IMG/VR virus record: IMGVR_UViG_2648501787_000015
Location: 1 to 3,583 of that record
Reading direction: 5' to 3' (one strand)
Length of the DNA stretch: 3,583 nt
Source: a virus
Taxonomy: Duplodnaviria > Heunggongvirae > Uroviricota > Caudoviricetes
Shown: in pieces, positions 1 to 3,583 of the stretch
How positions within the stretch are numbered: the first letter of the stretch is position 1
Layout of the letters: every line of letters starts with the position of its first letter
Program-made: the position numbers and the translations under genes
The notes under the pieces: model-generated
What the model saw: only the letters and a program-made list of their open reading frames with translations
The model's database searches: none
What the model was told of the DNA's origin: nothing

Positions 1-786
1 CTGACATTAAGTGCGGGAAAGAAATATTCATCTTCGCCATCCCACATCAGGATTAATGGCTATTCATTTACAACCCCGTATCCTGATGAAGCAGCCAGTT
101 ATTACTATGAAATTTTCGCAACGCGAAACGAAAACGGCTATGTCTCAGCCAGTCTGTACTGCAACCGCTCATTAGCTGGAAATGCATCGTTTTATGTATC
201 AGATGACCGGACTGACAAAATTCAGGTGAGTATTGGTAGTGGTGACAATATTTTTTCATCGGGTGCATCCGGCACGTTAATGCTGGGTGATATGTACTGT
301 GGAACAGTGACATACGGTAGAAATAATAGTGCAGAACCCGCCCTGCTCGGAAGCATTGAGGTCAGATACAGCCCGGTAACGGCATTTACCGGTGGAAGCG
401 CCAAAAACTCACTGAATAAAGATATTGTCACGGGGCTGAACACCTCTGACAGCGAGGCCGGATATCTGATGCTCTCGCCGTCCCTGAATGCAGCACAGGC
501 CACGTTTGATGCGGTGGATAACAGCAACAGTGATGTTGTGGCTGTTATGGCCTCGGTCACTTACCGCGGTGCTGATGCCCCCAATAACTGCCTGGCCTGG
601 AAAGTGAAAAATGGCAGCCATGCAGGTGCAACGATTACAGAGAATGGCGTACAAAGCGACACAAACAGCTGGACGACTGTCTCACAGAGTTTTATGACCC
701 AACCAGGAGGGAGCACTCCCTTCGCTAAGGGTGAGCTGACTTTTACAGCGGAGTTGTTTAATCAGGCAAGGAGCGCCACTGAATAA
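1..786 (+). CDS. 3' portion of a gene whose start lies upstream of the window; S/T/G/N-rich protein, putative phage structural (receptor-binding or tail-fibre-associated) protein, family not recognised
   Basis: Frame 1 has no stop codon from base 1 to TAA at 784-786; the ORF track shows only the part after an internal GTG at 226. Composition is typical of beta-rich fibre or adhesin domains, and the gene sits immediately upstream of a tail-fibre gene. No specific family motif recognised by eye. Confidence 0.4.
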   Translation: MTLSAGKKYSSSPSHIRINGYSFTTPYPDEAASYYYEIFATRNENGYVSASLYCNRSLAGNASFYVSDDRTDKIQVSIGSGDNIFSSGASGTLMLGDMYCGTVTYGRNNSAEPALLGSIEVRYSPVTAFTGGSAKNSLNKDIVTGLNTSDSEAGYLMLSPSLNAAQATFDAVDNSNSDVVAVMASVTYRGADAPNNCLAWKVKNGSHAGATITENGVQSDTNSWTTVSQSFMTQPGGSTPFAKGELTFTAELFNQARSATE

Positions 787-828
787 TAAATATCTCTGTA
801 TACACAATATCAGGAGAAATAATCAGAT

Positions 829-1608
829 ATGTTTCACATTGATAATAATACTGGCGTGCCGGTCATGCCGCCCGTCGCGGCTGAATACAGTAAAACGACG
901 CTTTATTTCACCGAAGGAGGGAACGGTATTCCACCCACGTATCCGGGGCCGGACTGGTTTAATATCGTGCAGTCCGAAATGCTGGAAATTCTCCGGCAGG
1001 CAAATATCAAACCGGACAAAAACACGACCAACCAGATTATGACGGCGCTGAAAAAGCTGTTTATCACTAACAGTGGTTCAGCCGGGGCTATTGCCGGATT
1101 AACCGGTCAGAATAATACGTTCCCGTATTTTACGGGCGAAGACACAATGTCATTAACGCCACTCAGTGCGTTTGTGCGCGGTATTCTTGGTAAAACCACG
1201 GCCGGTGAATTTATAGATGCGCTTTCGTTACGTGACACGGTAGATAAAGCCAGTCGTGCCGTACCGAATACCCGCAGGGTCAACAACATGCCCCTGACTT
1301 CGGATATCACCATCAACAACATCAGCGGCAACGCCGGAACGGCAACCCGGCTTCAGACGGCCCGCAGGATTAACAATGTGCTGTTTGATGGCAGTGGCGA
1401 TATCACGATTCCTGCAGGAATGAGTCAGTCAACAGCTGATGCCCGGTACATTCAGAATGTTCAGTTGGGGGCTCAGGTTCAGGGCGGATATCAGGCTCCG
1501 ACAGGCTGCGTGGTCACCTTTGTTGATGGCGGCGAAAAAATGGAGTTCATCAAGTATAAACCAGTGCAAATTTATATTAATGGCGCATGGCGCACTATCT
1601 CTGGTTAA
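829..1608 (+). CDS. Tail fibre protein, distal (C-terminal, receptor-binding/variable) half of a P2 H / Mu S / lambda Stf-type fibre, encoded as a separate 259-aa ORF
   Basis: ATG at 829 preceded by AGGAG at 812-816 (long 12-nt spacer). The protein contains AGLTGQNNTFPYFTGEDTMSLTPLSAFVRGILGK, which matches the conserved PYF(T/A)G..SL..L..GR.ILAK block of lambdoid/P2-type side tail fibres as I recall them. The C-terminus ARYIQNVQLG...IYINGAWRTI resembles the C-terminal chaperone-interaction end of P2 H-type fibres (RY..V.LG ... YINGxW). It is followed directly by a tfa-family gene. Confidence 0.65.
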   Translation: MFHIDNNTGVPVMPPVAAEYSKTTLYFTEGGNGIPPTYPGPDWFNIVQSEMLEILRQANIKPDKNTTNQIMTALKKLFITNSGSAGAIAGLTGQNNTFPYFTGEDTMSLTPLSAFVRGILGKTTAGEFIDALSLRDTVDKASRAVPNTRRVNNMPLTSDITINNISGNAGTATRLQTARRINNVLFDGSGDITIPAGMSQSTADARYIQNVQLGAQVQGGYQAPTGCVVTFVDGGEKMEFIKYKPVQIYINGAWRTISG

Positions 1609-1622
1609 TTAAGGAGAAAATA

Positions 1623-2153
1623 ATGGAACTCAGAAATGTTACACGTTACCACCCTGAAGATATGCCTTATGGTGAAGGCATTCAGTATTTCCGCAGTGAA
1701 GACGGACAGGATTTTTATGAATCCATGGACAAATTCACGAAGAGATACAAATTGTGCATTCACCCTGAAAGCGGCGTGATTTATTCAATGGCGGAAGACG
1801 TGTCCCGTCTTTATCCGACAGGTTTCACCATTGTGGAAGTTGATGAACTGCCGGAAGGTTTTGGCATTGAAGCCAGTTGGTATTACAAAGACGGCGAAGT
1901 GCTGCCGGTTCCTGTTGATTATTCGCAACTGGCAGAAAAACAACGCCAGCATCTGCTGACTGAAGCAAAGGACGTCACCTCCGACTGGAAAACCGAGCTG
2001 GAGCTGGGCGTCATCAGTGATGACGACAAAGCTCGTCTTGCGCAGTGGATGGCGTATATCAAAGCGGTAAAAGCGCTGGATTTAAGCGCCGTTACTGATG
2101 AAGCCTCCCTTAATGCCATCAGCTGGCCGGAGCATCCCGATGCCGCAGCTTAA
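1623..2153 (+). CDS. tfa: Tail fibre assembly protein (chaperone), Tfa / Mu U / P2 G family
   Basis: Strong RBS AAGGAG at 1611-1616 with a 6-nt spacer before ATG 1623; the ORF-track start at 1587 has no RBS and lies inside the upstream gene. The C-terminal region W..ELELGVISDDDKARLAQWMAYIKAVKALDLS....ISWPEHP matches the conserved Tfa C-terminal signature (LGIIS, W..Y..V...D.S, WPE.P) recalled for Mu U, P2 G and lambda Tfa. Position immediately 3' of a tail-fibre gene is canonical. Confidence 0.8.
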   Translation: MELRNVTRYHPEDMPYGEGIQYFRSEDGQDFYESMDKFTKRYKLCIHPESGVIYSMAEDVSRLYPTGFTIVEVDELPEGFGIEASWYYKDGEVLPVPVDYSQLAEKQRQHLLTEAKDVTSDWKTELELGVISDDDKARLAQWMAYIKAVKALDLSAVTDEASLNAISWPEHPDAAA

Positions 2154-2610
2154 AGGTGTGATTAAAACGCCCACAGGAGAACCGCTGGGCAGCACAACCA
2201 TCACGCTGACCTCCCTGCACAACCGTGCAGGGATTCTGAAAGGTGTTTTCAGCCACGTCACTACACAGAGCGGGGAGTACGACTTCCCCGTCATGCCGGG
2301 CGTGTACAGCGTTCGCCTGACACAGAGTACACAACGCCTTTCAGAAATCGGTGTCATTCGTGTTTATGAAGATTCACAGGACGGTTCGCTTAACGATTTT
2401 TTGTCGGTGACAGAGGCAGATTTGCGCCCTGAATCTCTTAAAAAGTTCGAAGAGATTGCAATGCAGATACAAAAAAGTGCGGAAAGTGTCAGATTATATG
2501 CAGAGGAGGTGAAACGGGATTGCGCAATTACCCTCGAAAACAGAAAACAGACAGAGAGACTGCTGTCCCTGATAGCAGAGCCTCTTTCTCAGAGTGCCGC
2601 AGAAAGCTGA
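2140..2610 (+). CDS. Side-tail-fibre N-terminal (virion anchor) domain protein, 156 aa; either a stand-alone anchor module or a truncated stf remnant
   Basis: ATG at 2140 with GGAG at 2129-2132 (7-nt spacer); the start overlaps the tfa stop (2151-2153) by 14 nt. MPQLKGVIKTPTGEPLGSTTITL...GEYDFPVMPGVYSVRL...IGVIRVYEDSQDGSLNDFLSVTEADLRPESLKK parallels the lambda Stf N-terminus as I recall it (MAVKISGVLKDGTGKPV...ITVYEDSQPGTLNDFLCAMTEDDARPEVLRR). The ORF ends at TGA 2608-2610 without any fibre shaft or distal domain. Confidence 0.6.
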   Translation: MPQLKGVIKTPTGEPLGSTTITLTSLHNRAGILKGVFSHVTTQSGEYDFPVMPGVYSVRLTQSTQRLSEIGVIRVYEDSQDGSLNDFLSVTEADLRPESLKKFEEIAMQIQKSAESVRLYAEEVKRDCAITLENRKQTERLLSLIAEPLSQSAAES

Positions 2611-2648
2611 CTCAAAAAAGGTTAATAATTAAGCGTTTTGTATAGATT

Positions 2649-2684
2649 ATGACGATCGATACCATCATATCGATCGTCGTTTTA
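2649..2684 (+). terminator. Perfect 11-bp inverted repeat (GACGATCGATA / TATCGATCGTC, 6-nt loop) followed by GTTTTA; candidate intrinsic terminator for the tail-fibre operon and/or Dam-methylation-sensitive operator of the com-mom promoter
   Basis: Arms at 2651-2661 and 2668-2678 are exact reverse complements. Each arm carries a GATC (2654-2657 and 2672-2675) embedded in CGATCG. A short T-run follows at 2680-2683. It lies between the stf-N stop and the com start. Confidence 0.35.
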
Positions 2685-2751
2685 CATCATGTGTGGTTAA
2701 ATATCCCCAGCCCTCCGGGTGGTCGTATCTGGTTATTACACAGGGGGAATC

Positions 2752-2937
2752 ATGGACTCTGTTCGCTGTAAAAACTGCAATAAGTTACTGTTTAAAGGAG
2801 GTTTTAAGCATATAGAAATTAAATGCCCTCGCTGTAAACGTTACATTGTCATATCGAATGCCAAAGAGCATCCCACGGAGCTGTATTGTGGGAAAAGAGA
2901 AGAAATCACGCATTCTGACAAAACCCTGCGTTATTGA
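2752..2937 (+). CDS. com: Com, zinc-finger translational activator of mom (Mu Com homologue), 61 aa
   Basis: RBS AGGGGG at 2742-2747 before ATG 2752. The protein [61 protein letters not shown] is nearly collinear with phage Mu Com as I recall it ([62 protein letters not shown]), including the CxxC...CxxC zinc knuckle. Its 3' end overlaps the next gene in another frame, as in Mu. Confidence 0.9.
2872..2892 (+). promoter_or_regulatory. Translation-inhibition hairpin (TIS-like): CCCAC / GTGGG stem sequestering the GTG start of mom, with the GGAG Shine-Dalgarno in the loop
   Basis: CCCAC at 2872-2876 is the reverse complement of GTGGG at 2888-2892; t2871 and a2893 can add a sixth pair. The loop is GGAGCTGTATT (2877-2887). 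GTG at 2888 is in the mom frame. This is analogous to the Mu mom TIS hairpin opened by Com. Confidence 0.45.
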
Positions 2938-3583
2938 GTATGAAGGCCGGATTGTCGGCTATGGTTCAAAGGAGTTGCGCGTTGAAACCATATCCTGCTG
3001 GCTGGCCCGCACAATCATTCAGACAAAGCATTATTCCCGCCGTTTTGTGAATAACTCCTACCTGCATCTGGGCGTATTCAGCGGACGTGATCTGGTTGGC
3101 GTTCTTCAGTGGGGATATGCCCTTAATCCCAACTCAGGGCGTCGTGTCGTGCTTGAAACAGATAACCGGGGTTACATGGAACTGAACCGCATGTGGTTAC
3201 ACGACGACATGCCCCGCAATTCTGAATCACGGGCCATCAGCTACGCGCTGAAAACCATCAGGTTACTGTATCCGTCAGTGGAGTGGGTTCAGTCCTTTGC
3301 AGACGAACGCTGCGGGCGTGCTGGCGTGGTATATCAGGCGTCGAATTTTGATTTTATTGGCAGCCATGAAAGCACATTCTACGAACTGGACGGCGAGTGG
3401 TATCACGAGATAGCGATGAACGCGATTAAGCGCGGAGGTCAACGAGGCGAGTATTTGCGGGCTAATAAGGAACGGGCCGTGGTACACAAATTTAATCAAT
3501 ATCGCTACATCAGATTCCTGAACAAGCGTGCAAGAAAGCGCCTAAACACCAAACTATTCAGGGTTCAGCCATACCCGAAGTGA
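2888..3583 (+). CDS. mom: Mom-like DNA modification protein (adenine N6 acetamido/carbamoylmethyl modification, anti-restriction); start uncertain: GTG 2888 preferred, ATG 2858 or TTG 2846 possible
   Basis: Long ORF ending at TGA 3581-3583, overlapping the 3' end of com in a different frame exactly as mom overlaps com in Mu. GTG 2888 has GGAG 7 nt upstream and lies in a hairpin stem. It would give a 231-aa product, which matches my unverified recollection of Mu Mom length. Direct sequence identity to Mu Mom could not be checked from memory; the call rests mainly on the tight com linkage and architecture. Confidence 0.75.

Follow-up and report, generated by a model that had tools for sequence, protein, structure and literature searches.

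A probable functional copy of the phage Mu com-mom operon, with a diverged promoter-proximal region, in a Mu-like transposable prophage of Escherichia coli

In bacteriophage Mu, the promoter of the com-mom operon, Pmom, carries three Dam GATC sites clustered in an upstream region bound by OxyR, and its poor -35 element is overlapped by the site of the C activator. A run of six T residues lies in the spacer of the same promoter (PMC4461284). At the level of translation, the Com protein, for which a CCCC finger has been described, recognises a short hairpin with the sequence 5'-CC(N)2-3GAG-3' in its hexaloop, located beside the translation-inhibition hairpin (TIS), and the models for Mu place the GUG start codon of mom within the TIS stem (PMC6483171). 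The chemistry of Mom was worked out in 2026: it is a GNAT-fold aminoacyltransferase that moves glycine from Gly-tRNA(Gly) to the N6 of adenine in double-stranded DNA, followed by a rearrangement on the base, and the product, N6-carbamoylmethyl-dA (6-NcmdA), is the same compound as N6-(1-acetamido)adenine (PMC13219725). Mutagenesis has defined R111, S124, D149, R151, H58, Y59, Y159, W48 and W181 as essential or important for Mom, in a numbering for 241 residues (PMC13219725) that runs 10 ahead of the numbering for 231 residues (PMC7261163), and an HTH-like insertion (about residues 175-209) is needed for activity and has been proposed to contact DNA (PMC13219725).

The stretch of DNA analysed here, referred to as the window, comprises 3,583 nucleotides (positions 1 to 3,583 of the IMG/VR virus record IMGVR_UViG_2648501787_000015). 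From its sequence, we put the probability at roughly 93% that the com-mom region of the window represents a functional version of the late operon of phage Mu, situated where a transposable, Mu-like E. coli prophage has its right end. The features on which this reading is built are collected in Table 1.

Table 1. Features of the window, with positions counted from its first letter.
Feature	Positions	Strand	Basis or remark
Tail fibre	829-1608	+	PHROG 1833, 1e-82
Caudo_TAP tail-fibre assembly chaperone	1587-2153	+	Profile match
Second tail-fibre gene, truncated, N-terminal domain only	2098-2610	+	Pfam phage_tail_N 1.3e-25; directly 5' of the com-mom cassette
com-mom regulatory region, from the left cassette edge to the com start	2620-2751	+	Homology boundary
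Candidate Dam/OxyR-type control site	2642-2678	.	Two GATC sites: 2654-2657 and 2672-2675
Diverged promoter-proximal segment, candidate activator-dependent promoter	2693-2731	+	Box GTGGTTAAATATCCCC at 2693-2708, 17-nt spacer, -10-like TATCTG at 2726-2731
com ribosome-binding site GGGGG	2743-2747	+	Read from the sequence; aligns with the annotated Mu com ribosome-binding site
com, 61-aa CCCC zinc-ribbon RNA-binding translational activator	2752-2937	+	Pfam, PHROG, BLASTP
Com-binding hairpin AUGC[CAAAGA]GCAU, loop motif CC-N3-GAG	2858-2871	+	Predicted fold; conserved in six loci
Translation-inhibition hairpin (TIS) CCCACGG...UUGUGGG, sequestering the mom SD and GUG	2872-2892	+	Predicted fold
mom ribosome-binding site GGAG	2877-2880	+	Aligns with the annotated Mu mom ribosome-binding site; invariant in six loci
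mom, 231-aa GNAT-fold Gly-tRNA(Gly)-dependent adenine-N6 aminoacyltransferase	2888-3583	+	Profile and identity to Mu Mom

The mom gene is contained in an ORF of the + strand (2846-3583) that lies in the +1 frame relative to com, and when read from the GTG at 2888 it overlaps com out of frame by 50 nt (2888-2937). Its product matches the Pfam family PF25680 with 253.7 bits (cut-off 27.1; E 1.5e-75) and the solved Mom structure, PDB 8BV8, with an E-value of 1.3e-155, and is identical to Mu Mom at 226 of 231 positions (98%; BLASTP 7e-177). At the nucleotide level the two genes differ at 56 positions, 47 of them third codon positions, which corresponds to a dN of 0.011, a dS of 0.41 and a dN/dS of ~0.03; mom is evidently under purifying selection. 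Some automatic annotations start the gene at an alternative in-frame ATG at 2858, which extends the protein to 241 aa. This ATG lies inside the stem of the Com hairpin and has no Shine-Dalgarno sequence (SD), and Mu Mom stays active without the 10 N-terminal residues concerned (PMC13219725); GTG 2888, with its conserved SD, is the better-supported start.

All of the residues defined by mutagenesis (R101, S114, D139, R141, Y149, H48, Y49, W38 and W171 in the 231-aa numbering, which we use from here on) are identical to those of Mu Mom in the pairwise alignment, and the HTH-like insertion is present at full length. The five substitutions relative to Mu are Q21R, V123T, T176A, V188E and K225R. 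Two of these, at positions 176 and 188, fall within the insertion proposed to contact DNA, as might be expected of a Mom with altered specificity or chemistry, using for example another aminoacyl donor or target sequence; we consider this highly improbable, given that the two proteins are 98% identical, that each activity-relevant residue is the same as in Mu, and that the active homologues reported in PMC13219725 are far more diverged than the protein of the window. The glycine-transfer chemistry of Mom is already carried in the RefSeq product names.

The preceding gene, com, starts at an internal ATG (2752) of a + strand ORF at 2719-2937 and encodes a protein of 61 residues. This matches the Pfam family PF10122 (Zn_ribbon_Com) with 30.5 bits (cut-off 22.9) and, from end to end, PHROG 13819 ('gpCom'; 4.3e-43), and is 73% identical to Mu Com (45/62 positions; BLASTP 1e-33), with a dN/dS of ~0.15 relative to the Mu gene. 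Its cysteines C6/C9 and C25/C28 form two CxxC pairs that align with the four cysteines of Mu Com. A sequence search of the PDB returned no solved structure related to Com, and no NCBIfam model matched either Com or Mom, although PGAP names both. The automatic RefSeq product name, 'Com family DNA-binding transcriptional regulator', would make Com a DNA-binding transcription factor rather than an RNA-binding translational activator. This name is the sole argument for such a role, which we find hardly credible, as Mu Com and a Haemophilus homologue bind RNA by experiment in a sequence- and structure-specific manner (PMC6483171) and the cognate RNA hairpin is conserved in the present locus.

These results bear directly on the first-pass annotation of the window, which was made from the letters alone. 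It had taken 2752-2937 for a Com homologue with zinc-binding cysteines, overlapped in the Mu manner by an ORF of ~230 aa in another frame, and both the profile matches and the +1 overlap agree with this. It had also proposed comparing both proteins with Mu Com and Mom by BLASTP and Pfam, and would have given up its reading if the product of 2888-3583 had lacked similarity to the Mom family: both proteins score above their Pfam cut-offs, and the similarity of the second to Mom is strong. The name that it used for the DNA adduct, N6-(1-acetamido)adenine, was likewise correct, as it denotes the same compound as 6-NcmdA.

Within com, and reaching into the start of mom, lie the RNA elements of the translational switch known from Mu. 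We aligned six loci, comprising the window, Mu, another class of E. coli loci, Scandinavium, an Enterobacteriaceae genome and Apirhabdus, from four enterobacterial genera; a scan of species-representative genomes yielded four loci, a number that is enough for footprinting and too small for a survey of distribution. The predicted folds of the Com hairpin and the TIS are the same in the window and in Mu (about -10 kcal/mol for the TIS), and the stems, the CC and GAG of the loop motif, the SD and the GUG are invariant in 6/6 loci. The N3 of the Com loop, on the other hand, takes six different values in the six loci (AAA, TGC, CGG, GTT, TCA and ACA), and the loop of the TIS varies in sequence and length, with 98.5% of the cells of the TIS stem paired across the alignment. 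Natural variation in the six loci thus leaves the N3 of CC-N3-GAG free and holds the rest of the Com target and the TIS stem fixed.

A covariation test of the two hairpins in the six loci found a single change from A-U to G-U and no compensatory changes, since the stems do not vary; what supports the structure is therefore its conservation, together with the published RNA probing in Mu. Third codon positions of com point in the same direction: in the stretch 2857-2887, which codes for Com only, 8 of 10 are invariant, whereas elsewhere in the gene the figure is 6 of 35 (Fisher p = 4.6e-4), and this indicates constraint at the level of the RNA. No curated family covers the Com/TIS element, as an Rfam scan of the whole window at E <= 1 returned one chance match to a snoRNA.

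The surroundings of the cassette are of a different kind. As the first-pass annotation had it, com-mom stands behind a tail-fibre module, whose three genes (829-1608, 1587-2153 and 2098-2610) are recognised by PHROG and Pfam. E. coli 06-00048 has an intact 749-aa protein, of which the product of the last of these genes matches the first ~130 residues only, and PGAP labels the counterpart of this gene a pseudogene. In a DNA search against deposited phages, relatives were found for 2762-3583 only, namely Mu, D108, SfMu and Mu-like Yersinia phages, at 88-89% identity, whereas the remaining 2.7 kb (positions 1-2760, tail-fibre genes included) showed no match to Mu at the DNA level; the likeness to Mu is thus confined to the cassette, outside which the phage is not Mu. 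The genome-wide DNA similarity and the gin/G-segment in front of com that mark members of Muvirus (Mu, D108, SfMu) are both missing here.

In the E. coli strain 23CRST050, the counterpart of the window is the right-hand end of a transposable, Mu-like prophage of ~33 kb, which encodes a Mu-type repressor, the transposases A and B, Kil, Gam, gp16/GemA and Mor, together with Mu-like head and tail genes. Complete prophages of this Mu-like type are the nearest relatives; they have no recombinase gene, and gin is absent from the closest of the complete prophages. In one relative the portal gene is frameshifted, so that some carriers may be defective prophages.

The cassette itself is not of one piece. 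The first 36 codons of com have a pS of ~1.0 relative to Mu, meaning that essentially every synonymous site differs, compared to 0.315 for mom, and nucleotide identity to Mu rises from ~65-68% to ~90-95% near position 2860. With such unequal divergence of its two parts, the cassette is therefore a recombinant, or mosaic, and its junction, as read from the alignment, is near 2857, at the island of invariant hairpins. Two complete RefSeq E. coli genomes carry 2611-3583 with 100% identity, 25 records have it at 99% or more, and the cassette occurs in 96 of 5426 complete E. coli genomes (about 2%).

The left edge of the cassette can be placed by comparison with about 25 E. coli genomes that carry another gene upstream (DUF4376): similarity to the window begins at 2620-2626 and continues into com. 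The non-Mu version of 2620-2751 is 88-95% conserved in this second class of E. coli prophages, and its conservation next to different neighbours makes it part of the mobile module. Among Mu-like prophages that have otherwise no relationship to one another, the Mu com-mom cassette thus moves as a unit. It was in this part of the locus that the first-pass annotation had to be amended. The com-mom genes do lie within 2611-3583, the region it had delimited, but the conserved module begins at ~2620-2626 and not at 2611; and its description as a Mu-type operon stands for the proteins, their overlap and the RNA elements, but not for the promoter-proximal DNA, which differs from that of Mu.

Two GATC sites, at 2654 and 2672, lie 18 bp apart in the upstream region, align with sites 1 and 2 of Mu Pmom, and are invariant in the six loci despite diverged flanks; GATC is otherwise depleted in the window, with 3 occurrences where 13.7±3.4 are expected. 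Of the 10 positions that the OxyR half-site consensus specifies (PMC2909390), the first half-site, ATAGATTATGACGAT (2642-2656), agrees at 8, compared to 7 in Mu. By analogy with Mu, we infer that OxyR binds at 2642-2678. The third GATC of Mu reads CATC in the window; it is kept as GATC in Mu, the Enterobacteriaceae genome and Apirhabdus, and is absent from the lineage of the window and from Scandinavium.

Further downstream, the part of Mu Pmom with the C site and the T6 run has been replaced by a segment that is 11 bp shorter: where Mu has TTATGCCCCAATAACC and, after an interval, TGTTTTTTAAGAT, the window has GTGGTTAAATATCCCCAGCCCTCCGGGTGGTCGTATCTG and no T run, and it thus lacks the C site and T6 by which a Mu-type Pmom is recognised. 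Within the non-Mu class, the blocks TGTG(G/A)TTAAATA and GCCCTC(C/A)GGG are conserved. A scan for sigma-70 promoters in 2500-2960 found none on the + strand; its one match, weak and divergent, is on the - strand. That 2693-2731 is an activator-dependent promoter is speculative. The 17-nt distance between its box and its -10-like element is that of the Mor-type promoters in Mu Pm and in a related prophage, and the box resembles a Mor box weakly, and for this reason we do not claim 2693-2708 as one; the -10-like TATCTG is not conserved.

The activator that could act on such a promoter was sought in the closest complete prophage. Its single gene of the Mor/C family is an orthologue of Mor (59% identity to Mor, 32% to C), and tblastn with Mu C found this Mor orthologue only and no C paralogue. 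An ORF in the position of C in the related prophage was considered as a divergent C and rejected, being unrelated and without similarity to it, and encoding a secreted protein with a signal peptide. In the same prophage, the late promoters in front of the endolysin and protease genes contain GAAGCCGGTAAATCCGGC with T7 behind it, almost the same as the Mor box known from the Mu middle promoter; exact boxes of this type occur at these two sites only, and none is found upstream of com.

Taken together with the replaced C-site and T6 segment, the absence of a C paralogue in the related prophage, and of a Mor box and a consensus promoter upstream of com, could mean that the cassette, though intact, is in effect a silent passenger, which was recombined into a lineage without C and gin, where its promoter is deaf to the resident activators and little or no Mom is made. 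The frameshifted portal gene of one carrier and the recombinant nature of the cassette, with its unequal divergence from Mu, fit such a scenario as well. We nevertheless judge it quite improbable: the dN/dS of 0.03 in mom and the intact RNA control elements argue for continued use, and the regulatory region is itself conserved in the second prophage class with its different neighbours. Moreover, a terminator search of the + strand in 2500-2960 found none between the tail genes and com, so that read-through from late transcripts is possible.

For a cassette in use, as we favour, transcription may have been rewired. The single Mor-family activator, working through the non-canonical box at 2693-2708, or read-through from the tail operon, might drive a recombinant cassette in which a distant promoter and 5' part of com became joined to a near-Mu mom at the invariant hairpins, in a lineage lacking gin and C, and the Dam/OxyR site with its two GATCs might allow heterogeneous production of Mom in the lysogen. 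We put this composite picture forward tentatively and regard it as rather unlikely in its entirety. The com-mom cassette of these prophages can serve as a natural system in which to ask how mom is activated when the phage lacks C.

Under the reading of the region as a functional Mu-type operon, transcription would enter com either from a weak activator-dependent promoter within 2676-2745 or by read-through from the tail operon, the two being equally possible. By homology with Mu, Dam methylation of the GATCs at 2654 and 2672 would keep OxyR from 2642-2678, which it would otherwise occupy. Com would then be made from the ATG at 2752, with the GGAG and GUG of mom (2877-2880 and 2888) predicted to be locked in the hairpin at 2872-2892 of the same mRNA. 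Binding of Com to the CC-AAA-GAG loop of the adjoining hairpin (2858-2871) would open this lock, and Mom would be produced only in the presence of Com; the elements are those seen in the window, and the mechanism is taken from the experiments in Mu. As suggested by the 98% identity and the retained essential residues, a Mom dimer would then transfer glycine from Gly-tRNA(Gly) to the N6 of adenine in double-stranded DNA, at loosely defined SASNY sites. The glycyl group would rearrange on the base to give N6-carbamoylmethyl-adenine, shielding the phage DNA from many restriction enzymes.

The com-mom system is already known, and the exact allele of the window is already in RefSeq. The first-pass annotation had itself called this a known family and not a novel one, and since the system is known and an identical cassette is annotated as com/mom in public E. 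coli genomes, the locus has to be regarded as already known. Its importance beyond correct annotation is small, as anti-restriction by com-mom is textbook knowledge and the enzymology behind it was solved in 2026.

The closest relatives of the locus are the com and mom genes of an E. coli Mu-like prophage in RefSeq (NZ_AP045825.1, 1100800-1101772; WP_001372435.1 and WP_072126634.1), which are 100% identical to it over 2611-3583. Such prophage records have the same tail-fibre neighbours and are 98.4% identical to the window as a whole, with differences in the tail-fibre part only (a length difference of 30 bp, with ~4% unaligned). Next comes the operon of Mu itself (AF083977.1, 35768-36602; Com AAF01130, Mom AAF01131; PDB 8BV8), with which the window shares the gene order, the out-of-frame overlap of 50 nt, GATC sites 1 and 2, and a position as the last genes at the right end of a transposable phage, and from which it is indistinguishable in the Com-hairpin stem, the CC-N3-GAG motif, the TIS stem, the SD and the GUG. 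In contrast, Mu has gin and the invertible G segment upstream, where the window has a truncated second tail-fibre gene, and the third GATC, the T6 run and the C-site sequence of Mu Pmom are all absent from the shorter segment of the window.

More distant parallels exist for both the enzyme and its control. Mom shares the GNAT fold with aminoacyltransferases such as FemX (compare TacT) and probably a FemX-like hold on the CCA end of the aminoacyl-tRNA (PMC13219725), a likeness that would extend to the protein of the window through its identity to Mu Mom; Mom differs from enzymes of the FemX/TacT type in its acceptor, the N6 of adenine in double-stranded DNA, and in its HTH-like insertion. The upstream region, in turn, is reminiscent of the Dam/OxyR switches of agn43, P22 gtr and opvAB, which likewise have closely spaced GATCs inside sequences resembling OxyR half-sites upstream of a promoter, and compared to these the window has one putative, tetramer-sized site with two GATCs.

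In the out-of-frame overlap of com and mom (window 2896-2937), the third positions of com codons, which are the second positions of mom, are invariant at 10 of 14 sites, and the first positions of com, corresponding to the third positions of mom, at 2 of 14. Judging from this substitution pattern, conservation in the overlap is set by the mom frame, so that the C-terminal tail of Com is moulded largely by the N-terminus of Mom. When compared to phage Mu, codons 1-36 of com have reached synonymous saturation (pS about 1.0). The 3' end of com and mom are both close to Mu, with pS of 0.05 and 0.315, respectively; we place a recombination junction inside com, at about window position 2857. In an alphaproteobacterial Magnetospira MAG (L013 40-880), a small ORF that carries a CxxC motif lies in front of the gene for a Mom homologue (53% identical) and overlaps it; the com-mom arrangement therefore extends well outside Enterobacterales.

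GATC is strongly depleted in the window, with 3 sites (13.7±3.4 expected), two of which form the regulatory pair upstream of com. In the related Mu-like prophage of Escherichia coli 23CRST050 (L003 170-33900; NZ_AP045825.1), GATC occurs at 1.42 per kb, compared with 3.42 per kb for the chromosomal DNA that flanks it. This prophage lies in the yersiniabactin island, between irp2 and irp1, and probably interrupts that operon, and its portal gene (DUF935) is annotated with a frameshift.

In front of its endolysin and protease genes, the same prophage carries two identical boxes for the middle activator Mor, each with a -10-like hexamer 17 nt past it. A Mor orthologue is present and the late activator C absent, which suggests that late genes in this phage group are driven directly by Mor.

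Mor boxes in the 23CRST050 prophage (L003 coordinates)
Feature	Position	Strand	Sequence
Mor box, Mu-Pm-like	25356-25370	minus	GAAGCCGGTAAATCCGGC then T7
Mor box, Mu-Pm-like	17803-17817	minus	GAAGCCGGTAAATCCGGC then T7

Upstream of com, the 170-aa ORF at window 2098-2610 corresponds to no more than the first ~130 residues, at the N-terminus, of a second tail fibre that is 749 aa long. E. coli 06-00048 (L014 3797-6636) has this fibre intact and followed by a DUF4376 chaperone and then com-mom, whereas the lineage of the window has lost the remainder of the fibre together with its chaperone. As for Com itself (WP_001372435.1, window 2752-2937), RefSeq names it a 'Com family DNA-binding transcriptional regulator', in contrast to the experimental literature, where it is an RNA-binding translational activator.
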